Source: a virus (lineage: Duplodnaviria; Caudoviricetes). From it: a DNA stretch of 51,764 nt. Made by a program: the position numbers and the translations under genes. The notes under the pieces are model-generated. The model was given only the letters and a program-made list of their open reading frames with translations, was not told the origin of the DNA and made no database searches. Below are positions 18,049-42,832 of this stretch, in pieces. How positions within the stretch are numbered: the stretch's first letter is position 1; each line of letters begins with the position of its first letter. Where the stretch lies: the IMG/VR virus record IMGVR_UViG_3300044267_002854, positions 1-51,764 of that record. One strand, 5' to 3'.

Positions 18049-18879
18049 ATGCAAACAAATATGATACAAGCATTCTTTGATTACATCAACGAGAGGCATG
18101 CTATTTATATTAATAAGTCTTCGGGCGCAGAGTTCCCTTGGACTGAAGACGAGATACTACAGACCTATAGCTTTTGTAATGTATTTAGGGAACTAGACAC
18201 AGTCACCATATGGCTTCGTAAAAACTGGAGAGAGCCGTATGCCGACCACCCCAACCTTCCTTTCGCTATGGCGATGGCTCGTCAAATCAATTGGCCAGCA
18301 ACTTTAGAAGAGATCGGCTTCCCTGAGGAATGGAACCCAGAACATGCTAAAAATGTTATGAGGGCTAGAAAACTTAAAAAAGAGAAAGTGTACACTGGTG
18401 CGTACATGTTGACGGGAACGCTAGGTGGTTCAAAAATCGATCAAACCATCGATAAAATACTAACCCCTCTGTATGAAAACCAACCTGAAATCTACTCCCA
18501 CTCGTTAGAACAGAGTTGGAGAGAGTATTTAAAGTACAAGGGTTTTGCCAAGTTTATATCCTATGAAGTTATTACAGACCTAAGACACACTAAACACTTA
18601 GAAAACGCAAACGACATAATGACTTGGGCTAATCCAGGTCCAGGAGCAAAGAGAGGACTCAACCGTATAAGCGGTAAAGAACTCAATGAGCCTATGCACA
18701 TTAAACGGGCTATAGAGGAAATGAGAGAGCTGTTACAATATTCTTTAAAAGAGCTCGAACCTTTTGTACCTGCCCTAGAGATGAGAGACATAGAGCACTC
18801 ATTATGTGAGTTTGATAAATATGAACGAACCAGATTAAACCAAGGGAGACCACGTGCTAAATATCACAAACCTGTTTAA
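18049..18879 (+). CDS. 5-hmdU DNA kinase-like protein (aGPT-Pplase1/HMUDK helical family)
   Basis: ERHAIY...PWTEDEILQTYSFCNVFRELD, GPGAKRGL, RDIEHSLCEFDKY: HhH-glycosylase-like fold signature recalled for this family. Confidence 0.8.
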   Translation: MQTNMIQAFFDYINERHAIYINKSSGAEFPWTEDEILQTYSFCNVFRELDTVTIWLRKNWREPYADHPNLPFAMAMARQINWPATLEEIGFPEEWNPEHAKNVMRARKLKKEKVYTGAYMLTGTLGGSKIDQTIDKILTPLYENQPEIYSHSLEQSWREYLKYKGFAKFISYEVITDLRHTKHLENANDIMTWANPGPGAKRGLNRISGKELNEPMHIKRAIEEMRELLQYSLKELEPFVPALEMRDIEHSLCEFDKYERTRLNQGRPRAKYHKPV

Positions 18880-19183
18880 AACAGTAAAAGAAGACGAGCG
18901 ATATCTCGTTGAAGACAACACACACCTAAAGACCATGGTTGTGAGTAAAACAACCCTAAAGCCTGAGAAAGAAACCACAGGACATTTCCACGAAGGACAG
19001 GAAGAAGTTTATTTATTTGTTAAGGGTAGGGGTGTACTAGAAACACACACCGAACTCATACAGGTGGTTGAAGGAGACGTCGTAGTCATAGACGATGGAG
19101 ATTTTCATAAGGTTTCTAATACATCAGACACAGTAGACCTAGAGTTTATTTGTGTGTTTCCAGGAGAACGCTATGAACATTGA
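18854..19183 (+). CDS. cupin-domain protein
   Basis: GHFHEGQEEVYLFVKGRG...GDVVVIDDGDFHKV. Confidence 0.85.
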   Translation: MLNITNLFKTVKEDERYLVEDNTHLKTMVVSKTTLKPEKETTGHFHEGQEEVYLFVKGRGVLETHTELIQVVEGDVVVIDDGDFHKVSNTSDTVDLEFICVFPGERYEH

Positions 19184-19841
19184 GTGGAGTGAAAAGGTTA
19201 ATGGCTTTGTTAGACCAGACACACTAGACGAATACGTTTTTAAAGAAATAAAGCCGTCTTACAAGTGTTTAGAGATATCTCCAGGAGATGTTGTGCTAGA
19301 TGTAGGCGCTAACATTGGAGCATTCACTAAGTATGCCTTAGAGTTAGGTGCAGAAGTTCATGCGTATGAGCCTGAAGAAGAAAACTATTTAATTATGTTA
19401 GAAAACATTAACTCACTTGACGCCATAGCTTATGCTAACAAGAAAGTTTTAACAGAACGGTGTGCGGTGGTGGGTGATGACAGCAAGTCTATTTCCCTGT
19501 ATGTTAACTCTAAGAAAAACAAAGGGCTACACATGACTAGACCAGTTCGTGGTCGTGAAGGGGTAGAGGTAGAGGCAAAAAACTTTGATGAAATAATCAC
19601 ATCAAAGCAACCAAATAAAATAAAGATTGATGTAGAGGGAGGAGAGTACAGCTTTATGCCTACGGTCTTTCCTGATTGTGTAGAGAAATTAGCAATGGAA
19701 CTACACTTTCAATACAACAAAGAGTGGAGAGGCATGGCAGTAAAGATACATGAAGACATGTTGTCGCAAGGCTTTTCCGTAATAAGAGAACCTAAATTCA
19801 CAGGTGGTAATTGGACCACATTAGCGGGGTATTCAAGATGA
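19173..19841 (+). CDS. FkbM-family SAM-dependent methyltransferase
   Basis: VLDVGANIGAF, AYEP, KIDVEGGE. Confidence 0.88.
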   Translation: MNIEWSEKVNGFVRPDTLDEYVFKEIKPSYKCLEISPGDVVLDVGANIGAFTKYALELGAEVHAYEPEEENYLIMLENINSLDAIAYANKKVLTERCAVVGDDSKSISLYVNSKKNKGLHMTRPVRGREGVEVEAKNFDEIITSKQPNKIKIDVEGGEYSFMPTVFPDCVEKLAMELHFQYNKEWRGMAVKIHEDMLSQGFSVIREPKFTGGNWTTLAGYSR

Positions 19842-20596
19842 AAGTATACATTCCAACAAGAGGCAGATCAAAAGACCAAACAACCCTAAAGTTTTTTCCT
19901 GAAGGACTAAAGGATAAAACAATATTAGTCGTAGACCACGACGAGAGAGATCAGTACGATGCTTACCCAAATGTATGGGTAATGCCTGAAGACTTGCCAA
20001 GCGGTATTTCACCAAAGCGAAAATATATTTGTGAGAATAGCGACGATCCTAAGGTGGTCATGCTTGACGACGACATACGCTTTTACATAAGAAAAGCATT
20101 CAACGACTGGCACTTGCGTTATTTAGAACCACACGAGCTACCAGCCATGTTTGGCGTTCTTGATAAGTGGTTAAACGATTATGCGCATTGTGGTGTGAGC
20201 GCTAGGGAAGGAAACAATCGAGTAGAAGACCTTTCCGTAGAGAACACTAGGTATATGCGATTACTCGCCTATAACATGGACATGTTGGACGGGGTAGAAC
20301 TAGGAAGGACTCGGATTATGGAGGACTTTGATGTTAACCTGCAACTATTAAGGAAGGGTAAAAAATCTAAGGTCAGCTATTACTATGCGCAAGGACAAGG
20401 CACCTCTAACGCCGATGGCGGTTGTAGTGAGTGGCGAAACCTAGACGTACAGGCAGAAGGTGCGGAACTATTAGCTTCCCTACACCCTGACTTTGTAAGG
20501 GTGGTTGAAAAGAAAACTAAAGAGGCTTGGGGTGGAGGCACTCGCAAGGACGTAATTGTACAATGGAAGAAGGCATATGCAAGTAGTCAAAGTTAA
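19838..20596 (+). CDS. TET-associated-type (TAGT/GREB1-like) glycosyltransferase
   Basis: N-terminal YIPTRGR, MLDDD (DxD), EDFDVNLQLLRKG, GGCS. Confidence 0.72.
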   Translation: MKVYIPTRGRSKDQTTLKFFPEGLKDKTILVVDHDERDQYDAYPNVWVMPEDLPSGISPKRKYICENSDDPKVVMLDDDIRFYIRKAFNDWHLRYLEPHELPAMFGVLDKWLNDYAHCGVSAREGNNRVEDLSVENTRYMRLLAYNMDMLDGVELGRTRIMEDFDVNLQLLRKGKKSKVSYYYAQGQGTSNADGGCSEWRNLDVQAEGAELLASLHPDFVRVVEKKTKEAWGGGTRKDVIVQWKKAYASSQS

Positions 20597-21647
20597 GAAT
20601 GTAAATCAAGCCCTCCCGTTAGGGATGAGCCTACTATATGAAGACGGAGTTCTTCGTGAGAGTCGAGCAGGAGACGTTATAGAATATCCTGGAGTCGTGG
20701 CGACAGTTTATGAAAAACCCACAGAAAGAGTATTGTTTAGCCCAGAAAGAGACGCTAACCCTTTCTTTCATTTCATAGAAGGTTTATGGATGCTTGACGG
20801 CAGGAACGACGTGGAGAGTATTGCACATTATGTCAAGCGCATGGGTAAGTTTAGCGACGACAGCAAAACACTGCATGGAGCATACGGACATCGATGGCGT
20901 TCGTGGTTTGGCAGAGACCAACTGCTTGAAGTCATAAACCGACTCTCTCTTTTCGAAGAAGACAGACGTGTTGTCCTAACGATGTGGGATCCTGAGAATG
21001 ATTTTACTTGTATGGAAGAAGGTGCTAAAGATGTTCCTTGTAACACTCACGTTTATTTTAAAGTTAGGGACGGCAAACTACACATGACAGTCTGTTGTCG
21101 TAGCAATGATATGATTTGGGGTGCTTACGGTGCTAACGCAGTACACATGTCCATGTTGCAGGAATTTATAGCTAACGCTATCAAAAAACAGGTAGGAACG
21201 TACACACAAATCAGCGACAGTTATCATGCCTATCAAGACGTTTATGCAAACCTACTGGATAAAATTCCTCCCGTAGATGTCTGGAATTTTCATCATGTGT
21301 ACAGCGATCCGTACAAACTAGACACCATACAGGCATATCCTCAGCTACTGTTAACCGACCACGTCAGTTGGTTAGAGACTAATAATCAGTTTCTATCTAC
21401 AGTTTTCGACCACTCGATGGAGCCCGAAGCGATAAAAAAGTGGAACTACCACTCAAACCCAGCAAAAGAAGACCCGTTTTTTGTCAATGTCGCAGAACCT
21501 ATCGCTGTTGCTTGGGAACACTACAAACTGTACAAAGAACTAGGTATAAGGGAAGAGATACAGAAAGCCCTATATGCGCTCAGTCCGTGCTTAGCTGGTG
21601 ATTGGCGCAGAGCCTGCATAGAGTGGATAGAGAGGAGGGCTAATTAA
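20577..21647 (+). CDS. thymidylate synthase homolog, probable dUMP hydroxymethylase
   Basis: Catalytic DVPCN; RSNDMIWGAYGAN (Asn at the pyrimidine-specificity position, so dUMP); SYHAY; gene neighbourhood. Confidence 0.8.
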   Translation: MQVVKVKNVNQALPLGMSLLYEDGVLRESRAGDVIEYPGVVATVYEKPTERVLFSPERDANPFFHFIEGLWMLDGRNDVESIAHYVKRMGKFSDDSKTLHGAYGHRWRSWFGRDQLLEVINRLSLFEEDRRVVLTMWDPENDFTCMEEGAKDVPCNTHVYFKVRDGKLHMTVCCRSNDMIWGAYGANAVHMSMLQEFIANAIKKQVGTYTQISDSYHAYQDVYANLLDKIPPVDVWNFHHVYSDPYKLDTIQAYPQLLLTDHVSWLETNNQFLSTVFDHSMEPEAIKKWNYHSNPAKEDPFFVNVAEPIAVAWEHYKLYKELGIREEIQKALYALSPCLAGDWRRACIEWIERRAN

Positions 21648-21677
21648 ATTTTACCGAAAAATTTTGTAAGAAAGTAA

Positions 21678-22367
21678 ATGAGTAATCAAGACACAATAAA
21701 CCGATGGTCGCATAGCCGTTTAGGAACTTATGAAAGTTGCCCTAAAAAAGCATTTTTCAGATACATAGAACACGTACCTGAGGAACAACACCCTGCTGCA
21801 GAGCGTGGTATTAAGATACACAACCTAGCAGAACAATATATAAAGGGGGAACTAAGTGAGATGCCTAGAGAACTATATCTCTTCTACGAGGGTTTTGAAC
21901 AGCTAAGAGAAGCATACGAGGAGGGTGACGTCTCTGTAGAGGAACAGTGGGCTTTTAACTTGAGTTGGGAAAAAGCAGATTGGGACGGTGAGGACACTTG
22001 GGGTAGATACGTTATTGATGCTTTTGTTAAACAGGGCGATAACGCTAGAGTTATTGACTTTAAAACAGGTAGGTTCAAAGATAAAAATGAAGGATATAAG
22101 AACCAGTGTTCTTTATATGCCTGTTGTGTGTTTAACCGCTTCCCTGAAATACAGAATATAGAAACAGAGTTGTGGTATCTAGACCACCATAAAATAACTC
22201 GTTATCGCTTTAGTAGAGAAGACTTGAGCGATATACAAGAAAATTTTCACAACAGGGCACTAACCATGACCACAGACACAGAGTTTAAAACAGCACCATC
22301 TGAGTTTGCTTGTCGTTGGTGTTCTTTTACTAATATTTGTAAGGATAATTTTTATGCGAGATCTTAA
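21678..22367 (+). CDS. PD-(D/E)XK nuclease (Cas4/RecB-like exonuclease)
   Basis: SHSRLGTYESCPKK, IDA..VIDFKTG, C-terminal CRWC...C. Confidence 0.85.
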   Translation: MSNQDTINRWSHSRLGTYESCPKKAFFRYIEHVPEEQHPAAERGIKIHNLAEQYIKGELSEMPRELYLFYEGFEQLREAYEEGDVSVEEQWAFNLSWEKADWDGEDTWGRYVIDAFVKQGDNARVIDFKTGRFKDKNEGYKNQCSLYACCVFNRFPEIQNIETELWYLDHHKITRYRFSREDLSDIQENFHNRALTMTTDTEFKTAPSEFACRWCSFTNICKDNFYARS

Positions 22368-22854
22368 TTCTTTATATAAGGTCATGGACAGCGGAGACGT
22401 TAAGCGTTATCACACAGTCGCAACACTAGGGGAGCAAACTAACGCTACTCACTGTTGGGGTGTGGCGGTTATTGCACTGTATCTATACCCAGAGATCGAT
22501 AAAGGTCTTTTATTGAACACACTACTGCATGACGTTGGTGAAATAGACACAGGAGATATACCTGCTACTGTTAAGTGGGCTAATCCAGAATTAAAACACA
22601 GACTAGATGCTATCGAAGACAAGTTGATGCAGGAACTGGGAATAGACTACAAAATAACAACTAAAGAGAAAAAGATACTGAAACAAGCAGACATGTTTGA
22701 ACTACTCTTCTTTTGTTTAAAGCAAAGAAAACTAGGTAATAGACATGTTGGTCGTATTTTCGGCAACGGGGTTGAAAAGTTGTCCGATGGAAATTTAAAC
22801 GGTCGGGGTGAAAAACTACTGGCTAATTTAGTAACACTATATGGAGAGATATAA
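22354..22854 (+). CDS. HD-domain 5'-deoxynucleotidase (YfbR-like)
   Basis: RYH..QTNATH, LLHDVGEIDTGDIP, KQADMFE. Confidence 0.82.
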   Translation: MRDLNSLYKVMDSGDVKRYHTVATLGEQTNATHCWGVAVIALYLYPEIDKGLLLNTLLHDVGEIDTGDIPATVKWANPELKHRLDAIEDKLMQELGIDYKITTKEKKILKQADMFELLFFCLKQRKLGNRHVGRIFGNGVEKLSDGNLNGRGEKLLANLVTLYGEI

Positions 22855-23198
22855 TGGAACCAGAAAACCTTAGAAAATTAACAGAAAACGATATTGAATG
22901 CCTAGCTAAAGCTGAAGAGTCATACGGTGACTCTTGGAAAAAGCGTGGTGGCGTAGGTGCATTCATGATGTTAGCTCGTAAGTGGGACAGGCTTGAGAAT
23001 AAAGCAGATGAGTACGGTTGGGACGTTTTTGAGGCAATACAGGACGACGATAGACCCGAAGGTATATTAGACGACATCCGAGACCTCCGTAGGTATCTAC
23101 TACTGGTCGAAGAAGAGATGCAGAGGGAGACAGAGATGCGTAAACCACTTCCTCAAGAGATAACTGAGGGCATAACCCTACCTAAGTTTGAGGCGTAG
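22854..23198 (+). CDS. nucleotide-modification-associated protein (DUF1599/Nmad1-like)
   Basis: SYGDSW..RG...RKWDRL...DDIRDLRRYLLL. Confidence 0.65.
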   Translation: MEPENLRKLTENDIECLAKAEESYGDSWKKRGGVGAFMMLARKWDRLENKADEYGWDVFEAIQDDDRPEGILDDIRDLRRYLLLVEEEMQRETEMRKPLPQEITEGITLPKFEA

Positions 23199-30138: not shown

Positions 30139-30143
30139 GCAGC

Positions 30144-30615: not shown

Positions 30616-30700
30616 GTCAAAACGATCTAAATATTCCCCTTTACTTTCCACTTTACTTTATTTATGCTATATAGGTAATTAAATAATAAAGGTGAAAATT

Positions 30701-31236: not shown

Positions 31237-31661
31237 GTACTAGAGCAGTTTACCGTTTTGTTAAGGAAGACGGAATAAATGTCTACACAGATATCTATAA
31301 ACACCACGATGGCTATCCTTCGGGAGCTGTGCTTTGGATTCAGAACGCGATCGATTATGAGAAAAAGCAACGGGAAAACCTTTTTGAAGACCACTCGGGC
31401 GACTCCTACCCTGACCGTAGACTTCATTATGCAGACCGACTAGCTATTTCCTTCTTACTGGGGAATACTGGCTTTCGCCAATTTACTGAACCTGAAATAA
31501 ACTCAGACGCTGCATTCATTTATACTATACGTGTCTCGTACCAAGACATCCAGAACATTAATATAGTCTGGTGCGACTTTGAGAATGAGAACCAGTGGGA
31601 TGGTACTTTTGAGGAAATGTGCGAAGTATACAAAAACGTACGTGGGGAGAAGACAGCATGA
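31233..31661 (+). CDS. conserved hypothetical protein
   Basis: MSTRA...IYKHHDGYPSG motif common in phage early genes. Confidence 0.7.
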   Translation: MSTRAVYRFVKEDGINVYTDIYKHHDGYPSGAVLWIQNAIDYEKKQRENLFEDHSGDSYPDRRLHYADRLAISFLLGNTGFRQFTEPEINSDAAFIYTIRVSYQDIQNINIVWCDFENENQWDGTFEEMCEVYKNVRGEKTA

Positions 31662-31918
31662 AGATACTGGGTGTAATTATATTTTTAGCAGGAATGTTTG
31701 TGTTTAGTAGTGGCTTAGTGTTCTTGGACTTAGCGTCCCTGCCTTTGAAAAAAGACCTATACACCATAGATGTGCTGGGGCTTTTTAACAATATGTTTTC
31801 ATTAGACCCCTCAACAGCAAGTTTTCAGTCTATACTGTCTGCGTTGTTTATATTGATGGGTTGCTTTATCTGCTTTGCAGGAACTATATTAATGAGGAAT
31901 GACGATGGATCTATTTAA
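31658..31918 (+). CDS. two-TM membrane protein
   Basis: Two hydrophobic segments. Confidence 0.65.
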   Translation: MKILGVIIFLAGMFVFSSGLVFLDLASLPLKKDLYTIDVLGLFNNMFSLDPSTASFQSILSALFILMGCFICFAGTILMRNDDGSI

Positions 31919-32510
31919 AGGAAGAGCCAAAAACTACCCAGTGCGGATTAGAGAATGGGATGAACGCACCGACAGAGATTGGGAGGACACGGAAGTGATA
32001 GGTAGACCTACCCGAGCTTTCGGTACTTCTGTGTTTGAGTACGCAGGAAAAACCTATGAACCTCACCCCTGGGAAGAAAACGAAGACTTGGAAGATTTAA
32101 AAAAGTATTTAGAGGATTGGTTGACCGTAGAATACGACCGACCCGTAAAGTTCACTTTTTGTTTATGTGGGCTTTATGAATACTCTTGGGATGAGATACC
32201 TCATCATTCGGATACCGTACCAACTTACAACGACCTAGTGGTTGGTGTTTCTTACGGTTCACCTAGAATTTTAGAGTGGCTGACCTACCGAGGCGATATT
32301 AAAGCAGAAACCAATACCAGCAAGACTCACTTTATTAAGTACGATGAAGAGATCGCCGACTACTGGGAACCAACTAAAACCAGCTATTTATTGGAAGATG
32401 GTGACGTCTACGTGTTCGACGGACATAGCCAAATGTGCTCGACTCATGCGATTCCTCCTCTCGTAGGTACGGGGTCTAGATACAGCCTAACCTTTAGAAC
32501 AGGCATCTAG
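31899..32510 (+). CDS. AlkB-like 2OG-Fe(II) oxygenase
   Basis: HSD...VSYG...THAIP...RYSLTFR. Confidence 0.82.
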   Translation: MTMDLFKGRAKNYPVRIREWDERTDRDWEDTEVIGRPTRAFGTSVFEYAGKTYEPHPWEENEDLEDLKKYLEDWLTVEYDRPVKFTFCLCGLYEYSWDEIPHHSDTVPTYNDLVVGVSYGSPRILEWLTYRGDIKAETNTSKTHFIKYDEEIADYWEPTKTSYLLEDGDVYVFDGHSQMCSTHAIPPLVGTGSRYSLTFRTGI

Positions 32511-32589
32511 TTAATCTTTTACAACTCCTTTACTTTGTAAGCCCTGCGGGTTATGCTATAAGGGTAATAAATAATAAAAGGTGAAAACT

Positions 32590-33000
32590 ATGGAAACTGT
32601 AAGAGCAATGGTCATAGACCCTAAGAATAAAGAAACTAAAGTAATTGAACTTTCAGCAAAACCAGACTACAAGGAGTGGAAAAAACTTATGGGGATCGAC
32701 AGCCCTGTAGATTTAGTACGTCTTGAACGGTTCGCAGGTCCAGACCAAGAAATAGTGACGGGCTTAATTGTTGACGACGAAGGACTACTTAAAGAAAAGA
32801 ATTACTATTTTTTGCCCGAAGACTATCACTCACCCCTCGCTGGAACTGCGTTATTAATATCGTGGGATGACGAGTGTGAGAACGGTACGCTCGTAGACCT
32901 AGTGCTTCCGTCAGGCGGTATTCGCTGGGCTAAGGATGATTTTAAAATGTCTCCCGAGTTTGTCTTTGTAGACACTACTGATCAGGAGAAGTTAAACTAA
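32590..33000 (+). CDS. DUF3846-like hypothetical protein
   Basis: IVDDEGLLK...LAGTALL; promoter at 32529. Confidence 0.6.
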   Translation: METVRAMVIDPKNKETKVIELSAKPDYKEWKKLMGIDSPVDLVRLERFAGPDQEIVTGLIVDDEGLLKEKNYYFLPEDYHSPLAGTALLISWDDECENGTLVDLVLPSGGIRWAKDDFKMSPEFVFVDTTDQEKLN

Positions 33001-33082
33001 CCAGCATCGTACTGATGTAGTTTAGGATCAGGCTTTTGGGTTTTATACTATATGGGTAATAAATAATAAAAAGGTGAATTAA

Positions 33083-33358
33083 ATGAACGAAGAAAAACCT
33101 GGATTTGTACAAGTACTGGAAGACCGAGGCTATGAATTCCTTAGCCGTAGGTATGGTGTAGGAGGCTGGTTCTTTAAAAATAACAACCTCTACAAGTATT
33201 TAGCAACTCAACGCTGGGCGCATACTGCCGAAGGCAACTTACGGGATGGTAGAGTTAGGTCGTGGGCTAGGCTTACGAAGATTACTCACTATAACTACCT
33301 GAGCCATTACATCCCTCCGTATATTTATAAAGAAGTAATCGGGAGGAGTTTAAGATGA
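33083..33358 (+). CDS. hypothetical protein
   Basis: Promoter variant TTTAGG-N17-TATACT at 33021. Confidence 0.65.
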   Translation: MNEEKPGFVQVLEDRGYEFLSRRYGVGGWFFKNNNLYKYLATQRWAHTAEGNLRDGRVRSWARLTKITHYNYLSHYIPPYIYKEVIGRSLR

Positions 33359-33609
33359 AACAAAAATTTAAAAAACTTCCCGAGATAGGCGACACTGTTG
33401 TCTGCTCTGACTGTAGTGGTAAAGGTTGGTACGCCATGTCTCCAGCTACTGGTGACGAAAACTACAACGACCATTACCAAACCGATCATAACTGTCACAA
33501 CTGTAACCGTACTGGAGAGATGGTTGTTGTGGGTTTTAGTAAGTACGGAATCGAAACAGCACCTCCTGAGTCCGATTGGGTGTACGGTGAGGATGGAGAT
33601 TACAGCTAA
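33355..33609 (+). CDS. DnaJ-type CxxCxGxG Zn-finger protein
   Basis: CSDCSGKG...CHNCNRTG. Confidence 0.7.
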   Translation: MKQKFKKLPEIGDTVVCSDCSGKGWYAMSPATGDENYNDHYQTDHNCHNCNRTGEMVVVGFSKYGIETAPPESDWVYGEDGDYS

Positions 33610-33626
33610 TGAACGGAGAAATAAAG

Positions 33627-34046
33627 ATGAAACAAAAATTTAAAGATGGTTGGGAAATAATACCTGCTGATTCTAAGGCTGGGTTATTCATGGAAGAAGA
33701 CTGGGAGGAAAGACTCTCGCCCATAATAGATAAAGAACAGCAAATTATTTACAATATGCTTAAATTATTTATCCCTGAAGAATACGGCTATTACTTTGAT
33801 GAAATCCACGAGCACGACGAACCTGAAGACATACCTCATGGTGAAGGGGTGTGGCGAACGGTCTATAGTACTCCTCTCGGATTTTATTATAAGGCTGGTG
33901 AATACAACATAATAAATACTGCTTCAACCGAAGAATATATTTACTACGCCATTGGTCTACATGGTTGCAGCCTTCAATCTGCCCTTACTGAATATGTTAG
34001 GGTGCCTAAAGAACAATACTGGGCTAGGAGTTACACCAACGCATGA
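33627..34046 (+). CDS. acidic hypothetical protein
   Basis: GGAG RBS favours a start at 33627. Confidence 0.65.
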   Translation: MKQKFKDGWEIIPADSKAGLFMEEDWEERLSPIIDKEQQIIYNMLKLFIPEEYGYYFDEIHEHDEPEDIPHGEGVWRTVYSTPLGFYYKAGEYNIINTASTEEYIYYAIGLHGCSLQSALTEYVRVPKEQYWARSYTNA

Positions 34047-34330
34047 ACGAACAAGAATATCATAAAAAATACCCCTTTCAAGAGGCTACTAGCGAAGACT
34101 ACGATAAGGAACTAACAACTCAAATAACCTTTAGGTTTCCTGAAGTGTTAAGGAAGCGCATGATGGGCGAGTATCTGGAGTTTTACTACGACGAAGAAAG
34201 TACCTATGTTGAAACTATAGGGGAATGGTCTAATGCGGGTATGTACGTTCTCCGTGGTAAACGGTATTCAGATATGGAACTATATGATTCTGCCGTGGCG
34301 TATTTTGAGCTTCAAATTGATCAAGTTTAG
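34043..34330 (+). CDS. acidic hypothetical protein
   Basis: ATGA overlap. Confidence 0.65.
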   Translation: MNEQEYHKKYPFQEATSEDYDKELTTQITFRFPEVLRKRMMGEYLEFYYDEESTYVETIGEWSNAGMYVLRGKRYSDMELYDSAVAYFELQIDQV

Positions 34331-34386
34331 TATCAAGCCGTTGGGTTTTATAATATAGGGGTAATAAATAATAAAGGGGAACACTT

Positions 34387-35046
34387 ATGAATAAAGAACT
34401 TATAGATACTCGGTTAGTAGCTAAACTCATGAATCAAACCGCTAAAGAATGTGGTATGGTTCGGGTTTATAGTTGTACTGATACTCTTTGGTGGGGTAAG
34501 GTATACGAACTAGAAAAACGGGGCGCTATATATCCTGCGTATAACTATAGAAGGTTGGCTAAATGCTATAATTTTCTAGACGATCGTTTTATAGACGAAC
34601 TCACTAAAAAGGCTAAAGCCGAAGGTTTTGATTTGGCTGATTCCTCACTTAACGCTTATAAACGGAAATCAAAGGTGCGTAATCACTCCTGCCCTAAGTA
34701 TAAAAAGAAACTTAAACACTATTTTGATAACTGGAAGCAGGATAGTAGAATGCCTGTAGCCCGTATTATACCCAATACTGAAAATGCGGTTTACGTTAGG
34801 CTGATCGCCCACTTTAAGAATAAGGTATATTCGGTTAAATCAATAAACCCTGCTTCAAAAATAACTACGGGGATTTGTTATCTGGATATGCCCCGCTTGG
34901 CTGAAATGGTTAATTACTATATAGAAAGTGAACACTGGGAAGAGGTCACCGAAGATTGTACTTTTGAATTAACCCGTATACAAACAGGAAAAAAGGTTAT
35001 ATATACCTACGAAGAACTGCTTAAGTTTTTCGCTGATTCTAAGTAA
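34387..35046 (+). CDS. hypothetical protein
   Basis: 219 aa; promoter TTTAGT-N17-TATAAT at 34326. Confidence 0.75.
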   Translation: MNKELIDTRLVAKLMNQTAKECGMVRVYSCTDTLWWGKVYELEKRGAIYPAYNYRRLAKCYNFLDDRFIDELTKKAKAEGFDLADSSLNAYKRKSKVRNHSCPKYKKKLKHYFDNWKQDSRMPVARIIPNTENAVYVRLIAHFKNKVYSVKSINPASKITTGICYLDMPRLAEMVNYYIESEHWEEVTEDCTFELTRIQTGKKVIYTYEELLKFFADSK

Positions 35047-35233
35047 ACCTGTTCACGCCCCTTTACTTTTCTTGTAAAAGGGCGTTGTTGTTTTTTAACA
35101 ACTGATTCTGCACTGTTCATTGGCTGGGGCAATACCCTAAGGAGGATGGAAGCCCCTGTTGTTAGTGGGCTATTTGCGTATTAGTGTTGGAGAGTGGGAG
35201 AAATGTTTTTAAAAGTTAAATCAAATCGTGTTT

Positions 35234-35336
35234 TAGCCAATAGGGCAATAGTGTTTGAAGTAAGTATTTGAATAATAAGAAGAAATGTTATATTGGCTAG
35301 AGCTATTGGCTGAATATTGCCTAGATTAGCCAATAT
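35234..35336. repeat. second cluster of AGCCAATA/TATTGGCT repeats
   Basis: Six copies or variants at 35234, 35244, 35291, 35302, 35315 and 35327. Confidence 0.7.
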
Positions 35337-35383
35337 AATTGGGTATATTTTGGGTATGTTTTACAAGACGACATGTAAACAGT

Positions 35384-35715
35384 CTCATGGTTCTGGAACC
35401 TCTGTATCCACTGTTGTATACTATAGTTGTTCTGTCTCTTGGAGCTTGGGTCTCCTCTAAGATTCTTCGGCTCCCCGTCCCAAGAGCCAAGAATCTCTTA
35501 CAAGATCGATAAACAAGAAGAAAAAGAGACAGAAACAGAGATCTTCTTCTTGTTCTTCTTGGTTCAAGGACAAGAACCAAGAGCGATAATCGATAATCAT
35601 GAAGAACAAGAACATGAACCATTGCTCTTCTTCTTGTTCTTGCTCCTTGTTCTTCTTCTTGCTCACAAGGGCACGGGCACGGGCTTTTCTTCCTGTTTAT
35701 GTTCTTTATCTTCTT
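35384..35715. repeat. period-3 low-complexity tracts (GAA/CAA/CAT versus TTC/TTG/CTC)
   Basis: For example gaagaacaagaacatgaacc and ttcttcttgttcttgctcc. Confidence 0.8.
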
Positions 35716-35727
35716 TTAGAAAAGGGC

Positions 35728-35756
35728 TTTACTTTCTAGTAGTAAAGGGGTATCAT
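35728..35756 (+). promoter_or_regulatory. promoter TTTACT-N17-TATCAT with CTTTACT/AGTAAAG inverted repeat
   Basis: Recurrent motif. Confidence 0.7.
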
Positions 35757-35806: not shown

Positions 35807-36097
35807 ATGCCACAATTAAGTAAAGCTGAAAAAACCGCAGTTAAGAAGGTCAAGGCTCAAGCTTCTGCTAAAGTAGAAGTTAAGGGTATGGGTGGTTTTC
35901 CTGTTACCGCTACTATTAAAGCTACAGGGAAACAACCAAGAGCTGGGCACAACCAAGATTGGGTTGATGCTTTTGATGGTCTCACCATTGGGGATTTCAT
36001 CGCTATTAAAAATAGTGATAAAATGCTCGGTGGATTTCAACGAGATACATCGGCTCTACGTTACTTCGTCAAGCACGGCTTCGTAACTATAGGGTAA
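35807..36097 (+). CDS. small basic putative DNA-binding protein (paralog of 37248)
   Basis: AAGGTG RBS; FPVTATI...FDGLTIGDFI...LRYFVKHGFVTIG. Confidence 0.75.
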   Translation: MPQLSKAEKTAVKKVKAQASAKVEVKGMGGFPVTATIKATGKQPRAGHNQDWVDAFDGLTIGDFIAIKNSDKMLGGFQRDTSALRYFVKHGFVTIG

Positions 36098-36107
36098 TCC
36101 CAAGAAG

Positions 36108-36138
36108 TCCCTCTTACTTAGGTAAGGGGGATTTTCTC
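36108..36138 (+). terminator. intrinsic terminator
   Basis: TCCCTCTTAC/GTAAGGGGGA stem followed by TTTT. Confidence 0.65.
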
Positions 36139-36141
36139 TAA

Positions 36142-36225
36142 CCGATAATCCCCAAGAACAAGAACACGAACCAAGATTCTTCTTCTTGTTGTTCAGTATA
36201 AGCACAACAAGAAGAACATGAACTC
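36142..36225. repeat. second period-3 GAA/CAA versus TTC/TTG tract
   Basis: cgataat..caagaacaagaacacgaacc..ttcttcttcttgttgttc, similar to 35584-35645. Confidence 0.75.
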
Positions 36226-36233
36226 ACGCTGGG

Positions 36234-36624
36234 TATAATCCACTAGGTCTTCCCTTTACTTTTTACTACTATATAGGGGTATTAATAAACTATAAGGTGA
36301 AATTATGAACTATGTAATAAATGATAAGGTCAAATTAAAGCCTATATCTAAAGGCGCTTCAAGCACTTGGTGGTATGACGAGGAAACTAATGAACTGTAT
36401 AAGTGGTTTCCACCAGCTTACCATGCAGGAACGGGGTATATTAACCGCCCCAGCTCTATTAGAAAGGTCACTGAGTTTAATATTGATAGTATGAATATCC
36501 CTAACTACGTTTTTAAACGAATGAAGACTAAATACTTAGGTTGGTCTTTATAATCCACTAGGTCTTCCCCCTAGTTTTTACTACTATAGTAGGGTAATAA
36601 ATTACTATAAGGTGAAATTATGAA
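36234..36624 (+). repeat. duplicated approx. 75-bp promoter/RBS leader (36234-36309 and 36549-36624)
   Basis: tataatccactaggtcttccc...tttttactactata...actataaggtgaaattatgaa occurs twice. Confidence 0.85.
36305..36553 (+). CDS. hypothetical protein
   Basis: Starts at the end of the duplicated leader. Confidence 0.7.
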   Translation: MNYVINDKVKLKPISKGASSTWWYDEETNELYKWFPPAYHAGTGYINRPSSIRKVTEFNIDSMNIPNYVFKRMKTKYLGWSL

Positions 36625-36952
36625 ATATGTTAATATGTACCGCACCAGCAGGTGCTACGGTGGACCCGAAGAGGGAGGCTGGTGGTATACTCAGGGAGAG
36701 TTCATAAAGTGCTACGGCATGTACTCTTCCAACGGGGATGCTAATTTAAAGGTAAAAAGGCTACAAGAGTCCCTTACTTACGAACCCACCTATCACTCTG
36801 GGTACGGTGATCACGACGGTGTTGACCCTTCAGGTAACGGCGATGATGCCTACCTCATCCCAGGTGGCGCTTGGGGGAAGGACGAAATATCCTTCTTAGT
36901 TGAAGACCATATAGGCGCTAACTTCCCTCGCTACACACCTCGCTACGAGTAA
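36620..36952 (+). CDS. conserved hypothetical protein (YGGPEEGGWWY motif)
   Basis: Starts at the end of the duplicated leader. Confidence 0.75.
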   Translation: MKYVNMYRTSRCYGGPEEGGWWYTQGEFIKCYGMYSSNGDANLKVKRLQESLTYEPTYHSGYGDHDGVDPSGNGDDAYLIPGGAWGKDEISFLVEDHIGANFPRYTPRYE

Positions 36953-36961
36953 TCCCCCGTG

Positions 36962-36997
36962 GCTCATGGTTCTGGTTTACCTTACAGAACCATGAGC
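36962..36997. terminator. perfect 13-bp hairpin
   Basis: GCTCATGGTTCTG-N10-CAGAACCATGAGC; no U tract. Confidence 0.55.
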
Positions 36998-37007
36998 TCT
37001 AAACCTC

Positions 37008-37097
37008 GATAAAGATAAAGATAAACAAAACCAAACCCGAACTCATACTCTTGTTCATGCTCATGTTCTTGTTCATGCTCGCATTCGTGTGTATGTG
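37008..37097. repeat. third period-3/6 tract (GATAAA x3; YTCWTG-type hexamers)
   Basis: gataaagataaagataaac...ctcttgttcatgctcatgttcttgttcatgctc. Confidence 0.8.
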
Positions 37098-37105
37098 GCT
37101 ACCCC

Positions 37106-37194
37106 TTTACTTATAACTAGTAGTTATATAGTTTTACCTTATAACTAAATATTATATTTAAACCCCTTTACTTACCCGTTAAAAAGCGTACTAT
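37106..37194 (+). promoter_or_regulatory. tandem promoters TTTACT-N17-TAGTTT (37106) and TTTACT-N16-TACTAT (37167)
   Basis: Recurrent motif. Confidence 0.6.
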
Positions 37195-37247
37195 TATAGG
37201 TACTATTAAATAATTAAGTTTAATAGCGTAAATAAAGGTAAATAAAA

Positions 37248-37580
37248 ATGGTAAATAAAACTAAAGGTACTAACGCTAACCTTACCGCTAATAGCGTAAC
37301 TATAAACGGTACTAGCTACCCCTTAACCGCTACTATAACCGTAGTTAACGGCGGTACGGTAAACCCTAAAAACGCTTATATATTAAATAGCGTTTATAAC
37401 GGGGCTACCGTAGCTAATATAGTACGGGCTAAAGCTAACCCTAGCGCTAAAGTTAATAACGCTTTAAGTACTAAAGCGTTAGCTAAAGCTAATATTAGTT
37501 TAGGTAGTAGCGCTAGTACCGTTTTAAGTAAAACGGGGTTAGGGTATTTTTTAAAGGGCGGTAAAATAACTATAAGCTAA
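37248..37580 (+). CDS. small basic protein lacking D, E, H, Q, C, W and internal M (paralog of 35807)
   Basis: Has its own promoters, an AAGGT RBS and a terminator; YPLTATI...YNGATVANIV...LGYFLKGGKITIS. Confidence 0.8.
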   Translation: MVNKTKGTNANLTANSVTINGTSYPLTATITVVNGGTVNPKNAYILNSVYNGATVANIVRAKANPSAKVNNALSTKALAKANISLGSSASTVLSKTGLGYFLKGGKITIS

Positions 37581-37597
37581 CCTTTAAACCCTAGCGG

Positions 37598-37634
37598 TAA
37601 GCCCCCTAGCTAATAACTAGGGGGCTTATTTTTT
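37598..37634 (+). terminator. intrinsic terminator
   Basis: TAAGCCCCCTAG-N7-CTAGGGGGCTTA followed by T6. Confidence 0.85.
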
Positions 37635-37860
37635 ATAGGGGCGTAGGGTAGTAAAGGGGTATAAAAGTAAAGGGCTTAAAAGGGCTATAATTAAGCCGTA
37701 GGGGTAGCCCCGCCCCCCTTTATAGCATAACCCTGTAGCTATAGCTAAAGGGTAAGATTTGGAGAGGCATTCACCATGGATTTCGAATTTTTGCAAATTT
37801 CCTTTACTTCTTGTGCAAAATAAGCAAAAATATTTCTTGCAAAATTTTTAGGAGAAAATT

Positions 37861-38022
37861 ATGGCAATCGGATTAACGAATTGGTTCAAAAAGACTTTTC
37901 TCGGTTATGAGGAAAAAACTGTTCGCAACCGCACAAAGAAAGGAAGGTTCGTAGCAGACGATCCTAAGACAAAAGACATAAACGAAGCGTACACTACTAA
38001 GACTTATAGAAAAAAGAAGTAA
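37861..38022 (+). CDS. small basic protein (53 aa)
   Basis: AGGAG RBS; RNRTKKGRFVADDPKTKDINEAY motif. Confidence 0.7.
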   Translation: MAIGLTNWFKKTFLGYEEKTVRNRTKKGRFVADDPKTKDINEAYTTKTYRKKK

Positions 38023-38023
38023 T

Positions 38024-38464
38024 GTGGGCTTCCCATTTGAGATAATAACCATGCTTGGTTCTACTCTGCTGAGTAGTTTATTGAGCATTTGGGCGCAAAG
38101 TCGTAAAGCCAAGGCGGAAGAACAAAAACTCTTGATCACAAGAGGCGAGTTTGACATGAAAGCGAGGAAACAGTCGCTGGATCATGGCTTAAAAGACAAG
38201 GGTTTCGCTTGGACAAGGCGGATTATAGCCCTAACTGCCATATTTGCCATCGTTTTACTGCCAAAACTAGTCGCAGTCTTCTATCCACAGGTCGATGTAA
38301 CAGTAGGGTACACGAATTGGATGCCTGGATTCTGGTTTTTTAAAGAAGGAAGGGAAGTTTTTGAGTGGGTGACGTTTCAGGGGCTTGTTATTACGCAATT
38401 AGACACGAATTTAGTGTCTGCAATCATTGGAATGTACTTTGGCGGGAGTTTAGTTAAGCGATGA
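38024..38464 (+). CDS. membrane protein, putative holin
   Basis: About three hydrophobic segments; C-terminal IIGMYFGGS. Confidence 0.6.
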   Translation: MGFPFEIITMLGSTLLSSLLSIWAQSRKAKAEEQKLLITRGEFDMKARKQSLDHGLKDKGFAWTRRIIALTAIFAIVLLPKLVAVFYPQVDVTVGYTNWMPGFWFFKEGREVFEWVTFQGLVITQLDTNLVSAIIGMYFGGSLVKR

Positions 38465-38934
38465 CAAAGAAAAACAAGGATAAACTGACTCCTAGACAGG
38501 AAAAATTCGCTCAAAGCGTGGCAAAAGGCTTATCCAAGACACAAGCAGCAATCGAAGCAGGATATTCGCCTAAAAATGCGCAAAAAGCGGGTACAGCTCT
38601 AGCCAGTGATCAAAATCCTAAGATAAAAAACAGAATCCAAGCGTTGCAAGACCGTGCAGCCGATTTAGTGAGCGTAAATCTAGGAACACACCTCAACGAT
38701 CTCAAAGATATACGGGATGGAGCAGTTGGAGCAGGAATGTGGTCGGCAGCAGTCGCAGCAGAAGTCGCAAGAGGCAAAGCAGCAGGACTTTATGTAAGAA
38801 AAAGCGAATTAACCATCAATAAAGTCGAAATGATGACTAAAGAGGAGATTTTAGTCAGAATGAACGAACTTTACTACGAATCGGGCGGAGTATTGCCCAA
38901 AGGCGAGATAATTGACGTCCAAACAGATGAATAA
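38461..38934 (+). CDS. terS: terminase small subunit
   Basis: LTPRQEKF..TQAAIEAGYS HTH; immediately upstream of terL. Confidence 0.85.
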   Translation: MTKKNKDKLTPRQEKFAQSVAKGLSKTQAAIEAGYSPKNAQKAGTALASDQNPKIKNRIQALQDRAADLVSVNLGTHLNDLKDIRDGAVGAGMWSAAVAAEVARGKAAGLYVRKSELTINKVEMMTKEEILVRMNELYYESGGVLPKGEIIDVQTDE

Positions 38935-40444
38935 AGACCTCAATAACCTTCCCGAAGATACATTAAAAGAGTATTACGAGCTTACAGAACGGTTCAAAGA
39001 GCTTAGTGAAGTAGAACAGTCGCAAAAAGAGTTTTTATCCTTTGTCAAAAGCCAGTGGCCAAACTTTATAGAAGGTCACCATCATAAAATAGTCGCAGAC
39101 GCTTTTAACCGCATAGCCGACGGCACTTTAAAGCGATTAATCATCAATATGCCTCCAAGACATACAAAAAGTGAGTTTGCGAGTTTTTTACTCCCAGCGT
39201 ACCTAATTGGGCGCAACCCTGCACTTAAAATCATACAAGCAACGCATACATCCGACCTTGCGGTGCGTTTTGGTCGTAAAGTAAGGGATTTAATACAATC
39301 CGACATATATAAACGTATTTTTCCCGATACGATACTAAACCCAGACTCAAAAGCAGCAGGAAAGTGGGAAACCATGGCAGAAAACCAACCGACGATACGA
39401 GGGGAGTATTATGCGGTAGGTACAGGCGGTGCGATCGCTGGACGGGGTGCAGACCTCTTTATTATTGACGATCCGCACTCAGAGCAAGACGCAATGTCAA
39501 AAGCAGCACTGGATGACGCTTATGAGTGGTATACCTCTGGACCAAGGCAAAGACTTCAGCCTGGAGGAGCGATAGTTATCGTTATGACTCGTTGGTCAGT
39601 TAAAGACCTAACAGGGAGATTAATCAAGGATATGTCTCGTAGTTCTCAAAACGATCAGTGGGAAGTCATTGAATTACCAGCTATACTGCCGAGTGGAGAC
39701 GCAGTTTGGCCAGAGTACTGGAAAGTTGAAGAACTGGAAGCAATCAAAGCAGCATTGGGTAATGGACCGAAATGGTTTGCTCAATACATGCAATCGCCGT
39801 CTTCTGAAGAAGGTGCGCTAATTAAACGTGAATGGTGGAAAGAATGGGTAACCGAAAAACCACCCGAGTGCGAATATATTATACAAAGCTACGACACGGC
39901 ATTTTTAAAGTCAGAAACTGCTGACTACTCCGCAATCACAACGTGGGGCGTATTTTACCCGCACGGACGCATAGGCGAAGATTTTTACCAAGGAGACGTT
40001 GCTCATCTCATACTACTGGACTCTGTGAAACAGAGGCTTGAGTTTCCTGAATTAAAGCGCAAAGCACTAGAACTTTATGAGCATTGGGATCCAGACACAG
40101 TAATTATTGAGGCGAAAGGAAGCGGAACGCCTTTAACACAAGAATTAAGGAGAATCGGTATTCCTGTTCAAAACTTTACTCCAAGCAAAGGCGCAGATAA
40201 GGTTGCTCGAGTAAACGCTTGTACACCATTGTTTGAGTCAGGAATGGTCTGGAAGCCCGACATGCACTGGGCGACAGAAGTTGTAGAAGAGTGTGCAGCT
40301 TTCCCTAACGGTGATCACGATGACTTAGTCGACTCAATGACACAAGCAGTTCTGCGTTTCCGCCAAGGTGGATTTGTTCAGTTAGCTTCTGATTATGAAG
40401 ACTCATTTGACGGATATAGACACAGACAAATGGTTTACTATTAA
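38927..40444 (+). CDS. terL: terminase large subunit
   Basis: INMPPRHTKS, IIDDP, MTRW, QSYDTAF, HDDLVDS. Confidence 0.95.
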   Translation: MNKDLNNLPEDTLKEYYELTERFKELSEVEQSQKEFLSFVKSQWPNFIEGHHHKIVADAFNRIADGTLKRLIINMPPRHTKSEFASFLLPAYLIGRNPALKIIQATHTSDLAVRFGRKVRDLIQSDIYKRIFPDTILNPDSKAAGKWETMAENQPTIRGEYYAVGTGGAIAGRGADLFIIDDPHSEQDAMSKAALDDAYEWYTSGPRQRLQPGGAIVIVMTRWSVKDLTGRLIKDMSRSSQNDQWEVIELPAILPSGDAVWPEYWKVEELEAIKAALGNGPKWFAQYMQSPSSEEGALIKREWWKEWVTEKPPECEYIIQSYDTAFLKSETADYSAITTWGVFYPHGRIGEDFYQGDVAHLILLDSVKQRLEFPELKRKALELYEHWDPDTVIIEAKGSGTPLTQELRRIGIPVQNFTPSKGADKVARVNACTPLFESGMVWKPDMHWATEVVEECAAFPNGDHDDLVDSMTQAVLRFRQGGFVQLASDYEDSFDGYRHRQMVYY

Positions 40445-40471: not shown

Positions 40472-42832
40472 ATGGCGATTGATAAACAGCTTCCAGTAAT
40501 GAACGGAGAAGTCCCACCTACTGGAGACCCACTTCCAATAGAGATAGAGCTCGAGCTACCAGACGGTGAAGAGATGATGCAAGAGGAAATGCCTCAAGCA
40601 CCACAGTTCAACGAAAACTTAGCCGAATACCTAGACGACACAGTACTAAACCCATTAGGGAGCGAACTTGTCGGTATGTACGAAGAAGACAAAGAGTCTC
40701 GTCAAGAATGGTACGAAGCGTTTAGTAAAGGCTTAGATTTACTAGGAATTAAAACCGAAGAAAGAACGCAACCTTTTCAAGGAGCAAGTGGCGTAGACCA
40801 CCCTATACTCGCAGAAGCAGTAACCCAGTTTCAAGCACAAGCGTATAAAGAGCTTTTACCTCCAGGTGGACCAGTACAAGTACAGGTTGTTGGAGCGCAC
40901 GACCCTGAAATCGTAGGACAGTCTACTCGGGTTAAGGAATTTATGAATTATCAAATCACTCACGTAATGGAAGAATACGATCCAGAGATGGATTCAATGT
41001 TGTTTTATTTACCACTTTCTGGTAGCGCTTTTAAGAAAGTTTATTTTGATACGATGTTAGATCGTGCTGTGAGCGAGTTTGTTAAGGCGGAAGACCTAGT
41101 AGTCAGCTATTCTACTACTGACTTATCTACTTCGCCACGTGTTACTCATGTTATGAGCATGACTAAAAACGATTTGCTTAAAATGCAATTAAACGGCACG
41201 TACAGAGATATCGACTTGATGCAGAACCCTGGAGCAGTGACTCCGAACGATGTTCAAGAAAAAATGGAAGAACTCGAAGGACTTAGTTCTACATACACAG
41301 AGAATAATGAGCTCTACACTATATTAGAAATGCACGTTGATTTAAGGCTAACGGAAATAGAAGACCATGGATTTGCTTGTCCGTATATTGTAACGATCTG
41401 TGAAGATATGAATGAAATACTCGCTATTCGCCGTAATTGGGAAGAAGGCGATATGCTTTATAAGAAAGTAGACTACTTCGTTCAGTATAAATTTCTTCCA
41501 GGACTAGGCTTCTATGGGTTCGGTCTAATTCACATGATCGGTGGTTTAACTAAATCGGTAACAGCTATATTAAGACAACTTATTGATGCTGGTACTTTAG
41601 CTAACCTTCCCGCAGGGTTTAAAGCTCGTGGGATGCGAATACAAGGCGAAGACGAACCACTACAGCCTGGAGAGTTTAGAGATGTTGATGTTGCAGGCGC
41701 AACGATTAAAGATTCACTTTTACCGCTACCCTATAAAGAGCCGTCAGCTGTTTTGTCACAGTTGTTAGGTATCTTAGTTGATTCGGGTAGACGTTTTGCA
41801 AGCATAGCGGATATGCAGGTTGGAGACATCGGTAGCCAACAATTGCCTGTAGGAACTACCATAGCTATGCTAGAAAGAGGAACAAAAGTAATGTCGGCTA
41901 TACATAAGCGGTTACACTTTGCACAGAAGAAAGAATTTAGACTTCTTTCTACTCTTTACGCTAAATACCTACCACCAGAATATCCGTACATGACAGACGG
42001 TGGTCAACAGGTTGTTATGGCGCAGGACTTTGACCAACGTGTTGACGTTTTACCTATAAGCGACCCGAATATTTTTTCAATGTCTCAACGAGTATTAATT
42101 GCTCAACAGCAATTACAAATGGCACAAGCTGCACCAGAAATACACAATATGCAAGAAGCGTATAGAAGAATGTACGAAGCGCTTGAAATTAAAAACCCAC
42201 AAACATTGTTTAAAGAACAGCAGCAAGTTCCACCAAGAGACCCAATTAGCGAACAGCAAGCAGCGATGATGGGGCAACCGATTAAAGCGTTTGAGTGGCA
42301 AGACCACGAGGCGTATATTGAATCTCATTCTGCTTTTTTACAAAACCCTATGGCACAACAAAATGAAATGGTTGTGCAAATGATTAGTTCAAACATACAA
42401 GAACATCAATCGATGAAATATCGATTAGAAATTGAAGAAGCTATGGGACAACCGTTACCACCACTAGAACAGCTACAACAAATGCCACCAGAACAGGCAC
42501 AACAAGTTATGAATCAAATTGCACAGTCTGCAACTCAAGCTACAGCAGAAGTAACGGGTAGAGCTCAAGCGGTTGCTGAAGCAGAAGAAAAAGCTAAGAT
42601 GGATCCGATAATAGAGCTTCAAAAAGCTGAGATAAGGCAACGAGCAGTCGCAGCAGATCAAAAACGAGAAGTTGAGAAAGAGAAGATTGAGTCTCAAGAG
42701 GCTATAGCAGAAATGAAAATTGCTGCTGATAGGGAAAAGAACATTCAGTCGGCTATACTTGAAGCAGACAGAACATACGCAGATATTTTAAACAGTGTCC
42801 GAGAAGCGGACGAACGAACTAGAGGAGAATAA
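40472..42832 (+). CDS. portal protein
   Basis: 786 aa after terL; GSAFKKVY, GFYGFGLIH, Q-rich C-terminal barrel region. Confidence 0.88.
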   Translation: MAIDKQLPVMNGEVPPTGDPLPIEIELELPDGEEMMQEEMPQAPQFNENLAEYLDDTVLNPLGSELVGMYEEDKESRQEWYEAFSKGLDLLGIKTEERTQPFQGASGVDHPILAEAVTQFQAQAYKELLPPGGPVQVQVVGAHDPEIVGQSTRVKEFMNYQITHVMEEYDPEMDSMLFYLPLSGSAFKKVYFDTMLDRAVSEFVKAEDLVVSYSTTDLSTSPRVTHVMSMTKNDLLKMQLNGTYRDIDLMQNPGAVTPNDVQEKMEELEGLSSTYTENNELYTILEMHVDLRLTEIEDHGFACPYIVTICEDMNEILAIRRNWEEGDMLYKKVDYFVQYKFLPGLGFYGFGLIHMIGGLTKSVTAILRQLIDAGTLANLPAGFKARGMRIQGEDEPLQPGEFRDVDVAGATIKDSLLPLPYKEPSAVLSQLLGILVDSGRRFASIADMQVGDIGSQQLPVGTTIAMLERGTKVMSAIHKRLHFAQKKEFRLLSTLYAKYLPPEYPYMTDGGQQVVMAQDFDQRVDVLPISDPNIFSMSQRVLIAQQQLQMAQAAPEIHNMQEAYRRMYEALEIKNPQTLFKEQQQVPPRDPISEQQAAMMGQPIKAFEWQDHEAYIESHSAFLQNPMAQQNEMVVQMISSNIQEHQSMKYRLEIEEAMGQPLPPLEQLQQMPPEQAQQVMNQIAQSATQATAEVTGRAQAVAEAEEKAKMDPIIELQKAEIRQRAVAADQKREVEKEKIESQEAIAEMKIAADREKNIQSAILEADRTYADILNSVREADERTRGE

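Follow-up and report, generated by a model that had tools for sequence, protein, structure and literature searches.

The locus considered here raises a simple question: why would a phage write one small gene, together with its signals, without the dinucleotides GA, TC, CA and TG? The window, i.e., the whole stretch of DNA that was analysed, is an entire uncultured virus record of 51.8 kb and possibly an incomplete genome. An earlier note on this DNA had described a near-total exclusion of the four dinucleotides over 630 bp, and a recount on both strands agrees, since the only such step between 37097 and 37726 is the TG (37249) of the ATG start codon at 37248. The free run is bounded by a TG at 37096 and a CA at 37726. 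The four words reduce to a single rule, namely that T never stands 5' of C or G on either strand (TpS). Together, GA, TC, CA and TG account for 23.7% of the dinucleotides of the window. In 5000 base shuffles of the block, 146 +/- 9 TpS were expected (minimum 116) against the one observed, in keeping with the more than one hundred steps that had been anticipated. Similarly depleted windows arising elsewhere by chance had been named as a possible refutation; the second-longest TpS-free runs in the window measure 47 bp (36252-36298 and 36567-36613). TC and GA alone are missing across a wider span (about 37086-37756). The block is 63% AT, and 57% of the single-base changes within it would create a TpS. 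Its parts and neighbours are as follows.

35807..36097, + strand: paralogue of the same family as the cassette protein, ordinary coding, 62 TpS steps (family search)
36252..36613, + strand: pair of repeated promoters, each with a TpS-free run of 47 bp (repeat comparison)
37040..37096, both strands: TpS-dense short repeats, left bound of the block (repeat comparison)
37097..37726, both strands: TpS-free block, without TC, GA, TG or CA save in the ATG (recount)
37167..37194, + strand: putative sigma70-like promoter, -35 TTTACT, 16 nt, -10 TACTAT (function judged from sequence)
37234..37239, + strand: ribosome-binding site AAAGGT (seen in the sequence)
37248..37580, + strand: CDS of the 110-aa basic protein, divergent within its small family of phage proteins
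37596..37635, + strand: intrinsic terminator, 14-pair stem (to 37630) and T run (terminator search)
37708..37753, + strand: C-run motif, right bound of the block and candidate genome end or packaging site (conservation)
38461..40444, + strand: terminase small and large subunits (domain/PHROG search)

The CDS and terminator are as first described, and the distance from the block to terS, given as about 0.7 kb, is 735 bp. As for the two promoters claimed, one is clear (37167) and the other, further upstream, is a weak candidate only. The 37167 promoter was missed by a generic promoter scan, which gave no excess over shuffles, and it has no extended -10 TG, unlike several of its sister promoters in the window genome. 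Likewise, the AAAGGT site is free of GA and TG, unlike the AAGGAG or AGGTGA forms at other genes of the window. The TpS-free bases continue for 145 positions beyond the stop codon, about 90 of them beyond the terminator, and end at the C-run. About 12 repeated sigma70-like promoters, with -35 TTTACT instead of TTGACA, occur at 12951 (- strand) and over 25982-35728 (+ strand); the extended -10 TG is found in several of them and is absent from those closest to the block, a possible timing hierarchy. TpS-dense short repeats lie on the early side of the block at 35400-35720, 36140-36230 and 36950-37096, and three relatives have the same TpS-dense flank (G002 at 20965, G004 at 59604, G006 at 18924); these repeats are possibly a heavily modified spacer, an origin or an injection pause. 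In sister strains (L005/L006), the left flank is nearly identical to the window over 36300-37100, the cassette gene is 56% identical and the 36620 gene is absent. Because these strains share the flank yet differ in the cassette gene, the cassette appears to be swapped as a module.

Conservation of the block identifies the level at which selection acts. The block is present in 23/23 loci encoding a homologue (6/6 viral and 17/17 metagenome), which answers the concern, raised at the outset, that it might be an assembly artefact. From 20 loci, 18 were parsed (L098 and L099 were left out), yielding 14 distinct CDSs of about 4.5 kb in all, with 59-99% nucleotide identity; the number of TpS after the ATG is zero in all 14. 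Synonymous recoding of the same protein would give 60 +/- 6 TpS, and the non-coding parts of the block are covered as well, which bears out the earlier view that the exclusion acts on DNA. Thus, TpS exclusion on both strands is absolute and conserved across diverged genes. The amino acids D, E, H, Q, C, W and internal M are missing in 16/16 proteins of the clade because these residues need TpS in their codons; in the wider family, 0 of 120 members are without this set. TpS exclusion is selected at the DNA level, strongly enough to purge seven amino acids, and this selection on DNA chemistry overrides protein conservation, as the family-conserved His and Asp are gone from the cassette protein. 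In three further cassettes, the leftover TpS are close to the minimum forced by the protein (5 against 5 in G004, 4 against 3 in G022, 3 against 2 in L073), and in two others avoidable TpS are kept in the 3' part of the gene (G003, 37 against a minimum of 15; G028, 10 against 1). With the only TG of the block held by its start codon, one modified site would be tolerated.

The window phage is of the HTVC023P type and was detected in marine sequencing runs. Its capsid protein is 65-72% identical to those of HTVC023P, HTVC027P and DSL-LC04; relative to HTVC023P itself, the values are 67% for the capsid, 55% for terL and 51% for Pol A, and the portal, GroES and gene order are alike. Between the helicase and Pol A lies a cluster of modification genes.

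18049..23198, + strand: modification cluster (domain/PHROG searches)
from 18049, + strand: aGPT-Pplase1/HMUDK_hel (PF18723, E 3e-48)
from 19811, + strand: TAGT glycosyltransferase (domain search)
from 20556, + strand: dUMP-hydroxymethylase-like thymidylate synthase (phrog_5131, E 3e-110)

The cluster also encodes a cupin, an FkbM methyltransferase, a nuclease and an HD nucleotidase. The synthase is 44% identical to a YuA protein annotated as a putative hydroxymethyltransferase, and the aGPT-Pplase1 is 41-43% identical to its M6/YuA homologues. A P-loop 5-HMUDK and an amino-acid transferase were sought with YuA gp13 and gp10, and tblastn gave no match in the window (E 1e-4). Therefore, the chemistry of the window phage would differ from that of M6, and the TpS context is carried over by analogy. 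A cluster of TS, aGPT-PPlase1 and glucosyltransferase genes has been described from sequence in the HTVC023P-type lineage (Wittmers et al., 2022; PMC9599517); the phages of that study share lineage and cluster with the window, and its main text uses neither the word 'dinucleotide' nor the word 'promoter'. Unlike the window phage, the cultured HTVC023P-type members examined have neither cluster nor block. Several other genes were noted along the way. A cytidylyltransferase-like gene (29460-29888), which might supply the glycosyltransferase with sugar donor, and an AlkB-like dioxygenase (31899-32510) are both patchy in relatives, and a protein among the predicted ejection proteins (2023-3708) contains a long perfect Thr-Pro repeat. 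In the helicase-Pol A interval, the cluster has been lost in G001, a phage with an 87% identical terL, and in G017 the TAGT is replaced by a group-1 glycosyltransferase.

The earlier note had suggested searching related genomes for a syntenic block upstream of terS, and such blocks exist. A scan of 60 records covered the window, 44 uncultured contigs (38-76 kb, chosen by length from terL, primase and synthase searches) and 15 named phages, with G002 scanned without its last 247 bases; a run counted as a block when 20 or more hits were expected and no more than one was present. Among these records, which are related and whose counts are not independent samples, blocks free of both TC and TG occur in 8/60, every one in a TAGT genome, blocks free of TC only in 7/60 (G021, G022, G039, G043, G049, G056 and G052) and blocks free of TG only in 2/60 (G027 and G030). 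They lie upstream of terL wherever terL could be placed, and most cover a small gene and its signals; in G027, the start codon again holds the sole TG. A block accompanies the cluster in 16/41 cluster-bearing uncultured records. The other 25/41, 9 of them with TAGT, have none, some being fragments or partly depleted; partial depletion is seen in G003, G006, G028 and G045. All 8 named cluster-bearing phages (YuA, PhiW-14, SP10, PaMx11, PhiJL001, LuckyBarnes, Sonora and RHph_TM26) are likewise without a block, and both counts speak against a simple rule. The cluster-less records G025 and G031 and 7 cluster-less named relatives have no block either. The closest comparison is provided by G001, the sister of the window (terL 87%, capsid 98%; 100/100 support on the terL tree), which has no cluster, no family gene and no block, its longest TpS-free run being 39 bp. 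That tree has 32 rows; it omits G017 and G019, whose terL is truncated or missing, as well as records in which no terL matched.

The cassettes with a single missing word were located individually. TC/GA-free cassettes occupy 1438-2099 in G039, 37740-38438 in G043, 40987-41471 in G021, about 34800-35270 in G049 and about 20600-21090 in G056. Their small genes, Ala/Pro-rich in G039 and G043, are unmatched by the family profiles; thus, the zone is filled by different genes. TG/CA-free cassettes were found in phages of 30% GC: G027 12042-12648 (L321), G030 2077-2569 (L332) and G028 247-654 (L326). The G030 contig, with its TG-free block, stops short of where the cluster would lie; in G027 and G028, the sisters of G030 by terL, the cluster has C5-cytosine methylase, kinase and synthase genes. 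These three cassettes perhaps reflect a different chemistry, on the C of CpA. Two other kinds of depletion were set aside, namely AG/CT-free stretches in G031 and G036, which are simple repeats, and long TA-free runs in GC-rich genomes, which were treated as codon usage.

Signs of modification extend across the genome. Palindromes without T are nearly gone from the window (rho 0.00 for CCGG, 0.02 for CGCG, 0.07 for GGCC), compared with 0.91, 0.79 and 0.90, respectively, in G001, and the near-absence of CCGG, GGCC and CGCG recurs in other cluster-bearing relatives. GATC is barely avoided (rho 0.88 genome-wide). Chemical protection of T-containing sites would be expected to leave such a pattern, with T-less palindromes purged and GATC kept. 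Within the block, other palindromes are plentiful (AGCT 7, GTAC 8, CTAG 7), and TTAA is abundant. At promoter-like sites, the ratio of observed to expected TpS is 0.46-0.83 in 9 TAGT genomes, the window having 38 against 74 (0.51); in the three unmodified genomes that have any such sites, which are few, it is 0.82-0.94.

The product of the cassette is a basic protein with 11 K/R and no D/E (net charge +11). Pfam and PHROGs gave no family for it or its relatives, tblastn of named phages and sequence search of the PDB found no relative of it, and the Atlas gave no usable match; for one relative, the Atlas returned unnamed clusters and one low-scoring automatic toxin-domain label (0.87). A family of basic proteins of about 75-100 aa (177 hits) includes the paralogue at 35807, and the 110-aa protein is moderately linked to it (hhalign 77%, E 2e-5). 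Among the scanned records, only G030 and those with the modification cluster gave family matches, which often number 2-4 per record, and a family gene stands immediately 5' of aGPT-Pplase1 in G021, G022, G024, G029 and PhiJL001 (gp18). AlphaFold of the 110-aa protein itself (12 sequences) reached a pLDDT of 36.6, and the model of the family (pLDDT 86.9) has three helices and a terminal strand. Fold matches of this model are weak (best Z 5.0, rmsd 3.0, 62 aligned), and many of those listed are winged-helix domains; no solved fold exceeded Z 5.0, which is not proof of a new fold. Its top viral structure match is PhiJL001 gp18 (Foldseek E 0.012, probability 0.99), which resembles the family by HMM as well. 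Unlike the cassette gene, gp18 is ordinarily coded, longer and located beside modification genes rather than at a genome end. A winged-helix-like fold is tentatively predicted for the family, and the 110-aa protein may bind DNA, to judge from its net charge and gene context. As the family also sits beside modification genes, a binder of modified DNA is proposed.

The position of the block also deserves attention. Modified and unmodified members of the group alike conserve the C-run and the A-tract after it, and in all block-bearing close relatives this motif forms the right bound of the block. The cassette gene faces the C-run in the window and has the opposite orientation in G002, G003, G019 and G050. 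The earlier placement of the block at the genome end is moderately and indirectly supported: three of 18 contigs (L094, L096 and L103), two of which share local sequence, stop at one homologous base exactly 33 nt past the C-run (~37753), but contigs from sequencing runs gave no end signal at this candidate terminus. Five more of the 18 stop within 225 nt of the C-run or inside the block, and the rest run through. On this basis, ~37753 may, with moderate confidence, be taken as a genome end or packaging cut; an assembly-graph branch point is another possible reason for contigs to end there. A terminal repeat of ~2 kb was considered and rejected. In run X1, depth was 48.8 versus about 30 over 35874-37646, but in X10 it was lower over the block (81.8 versus about 101), and the raised depth in X1 is equally explained by sequence shared with sister strains. 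Two RNA runs gave no coverage of the block, a result that carries no weight either way.

Avoidance of the phage's own T-modification context, one of the two causes first suggested, gains from these comparisons: the blocks accompany the cluster, the cluster-less sister G001 lacks one, and the excluded words equal a published TS context. Whatever its purpose, the exclusion is very probably caused by the phage's own modification. In the scheme that we propose, T would be replaced by 5-hmU and hypermodified after replication by TAGT and aGPT-Pplase1, to judge from gene content, the predicted bulky group being a sugar on hydroxymethyluracil. The target would be TpS, given the association with TAGT and the published TS specificity of other phages, and the excluded word (TC+TG, TC or TG) would report the modification context of each phage. 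Lying at the genome end beside the packaging motif, the block would enter early, as the one unit readable by host RNA polymerase on arrival, and its basic, winged-helix-like product may bind modified DNA, such that the rest of the genome is expressed or shielded. We consider it somewhat better than an even chance that the phage's own bulky T modification is kept out of the cassette in order for host RNA polymerase to initiate and elongate on virion DNA, with the product helping to express or protect the rest. Bulky modifications and 5hmU phosphorylation have been reported to stop bacterial RNA polymerase (PMC11550810). However, glucosyl-hmC templates are still transcribed in vitro according to the same article, which counts against the transcription-block reading. 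The tolerated TG of the start codon, the avoidable TpS of G003 and G028 and the cluster-bearing phages without a block also weigh against the proposed scheme.

Other purposes of an unmodified zone can be envisioned. Plain DNA that enters first might escape the modification-dependent (type IV) nucleases of the host until a shield or inhibitor product is made. This explanation correlates equally with the modification cluster, accounts for a free zone that exceeds the needs of transcription past the stop codon and terminator, and agrees with a report that early-injected regions decide the outcome of restriction (PMC12455610). However, TpS is scarce in internal promoters distant from the end as well, a sign pointing to RNA polymerase, and the left boundary lies only just 5' of the promoter, adjoining TpS-dense repeats; evasion of type IV nucleases is therefore judged unlikely. 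Alternatively, the genome end might need the zone in cis, for instance for terminase cutting, ejection, end joining or first replication, with the gene being incidental. In agreement with this, the right bound is tied to the conserved C-run in either gene orientation, three contigs stop 33 nt past it, and the zone holds different genes in G021, in G039/G043 and in G049/G056. Yet the zone length tracks promoter, CDS and terminator in the window, G021, G027, G030, G039 and G043, the sole tolerated exception is a start codon, and modified relatives that share the packaging genes have no such zone, leaving a cis role improbable.

The second cause first suggested, i.e., that first-injected DNA avoids host defence motifs (GATC-type R-M, phosphorothioate GAAC/GATC, DarT TNTC), fared poorly. 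None of GATC, GAAC and TNTC occurs in the block, and avoidance of motifs in a leading region is documented (PMC12455610). However, entire dinucleotides are purged rather than 4-6-mers, AGCT, GTAC, CTAG and TTAA are plentiful in the block, the genome as a whole scarcely avoids GATC, and relatives without modification genes are blockless, so that this account is very hard to sustain. Chance, low complexity, protein composition or an assembly artefact could draw on the AT content and on the simple repeats that make up the dinucleotide-poor stretches of G031 and G036; against one step where shuffling gives 146 +/- 9 and the synonymous null 60, in 23/23 loci and with non-coding DNA included, their probability is negligible.

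Among known systems, M6, ViI and phiW-14 were inferred by Flodman et al. (PMC6449724) to be modified at TG/TC, and a TG context was given for another phage (PMC13458397). The published TG/TC contexts of M6/YuA, ViI, phiW-14 and SH-Ab 15599 (PMC6449724, PMC8989533, PMC13458397) equal the words excluded in the window. The M6/YuA type shares with the window a hydroxymethylase-like synthase and an aGPT-Pplase1 homologue, adjoining Pol A, whereas the window has TAGT, FkbM and cupin genes and is without the M6-type P-loop 5-HMUDK and amino-acid transferase. Long TpS-free blocks are absent from YuA, PhiW-14, SP10 and PaMx11; the maximum in YuA is 37 bp, at the promoter before terS. The two longest TpS-free runs of YuA, 33156-33192 and 621-651 (L105 and L104), are one repeated motif, which adjoins its two annotated -35/-10 promoters, one of them directly before terS. 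For Murciavirus (PMC12455610) and the first-step-transfer DNA of T5, position-specific avoidance in a small early region has been reported, as in the window. There, a multi-base host motif is avoided, whereas the window excludes whole dinucleotides on both strands, likely the target of the phage itself, and the exclusion reaches as far as the amino-acid alphabet.

The J glucosyltransferase is related to TAGT. Base J, the glucosyl-hydroxymethyluracil of kinetoplastids, acts in transcription termination (PMC7055916), and, as in the window, a glycosyltransferase is paired with a source of hmU. Base J is eukaryotic, sparse and regulatory, whereas the modification of the window phage is predicted to be genome-wide and protective. 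In the literature searched, mostly open-access main texts, no report was found of a cassette that avoids the phage's own modification context or of a lineage-specific missing word. Modification clusters, TS specificity and the avoidance of host motifs in first-injected DNA are already known; a cassette free of the phage's own context appears to be new, as judged by that search.

For these abundant marine phages, a widespread and so far undescribed strategy can be offered tentatively, at slightly less than even odds: the virion genome would be locked against transcription by the host through its own protective modification, and a 'key' cassette at the end, without the modified word, would encode a product that reads the base and unlocks the rest. 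The first transcription of hypermodified phage DNA has been called underexplored (PMC11550810); since the cassette supplies a specific promoter, gene and context, this question becomes directly testable. The small protein family provides candidate readers of modified DNA. If the reading is true, the modification specificity of an uncultured phage could be read from its genome via the missing word (TC+TG, TC or TG). Such a scan, needing only sequence, would reveal modification contexts in uncultured phages and flag unstudied glycosyltransferases for which TC, TG or TS specificity is predicted.
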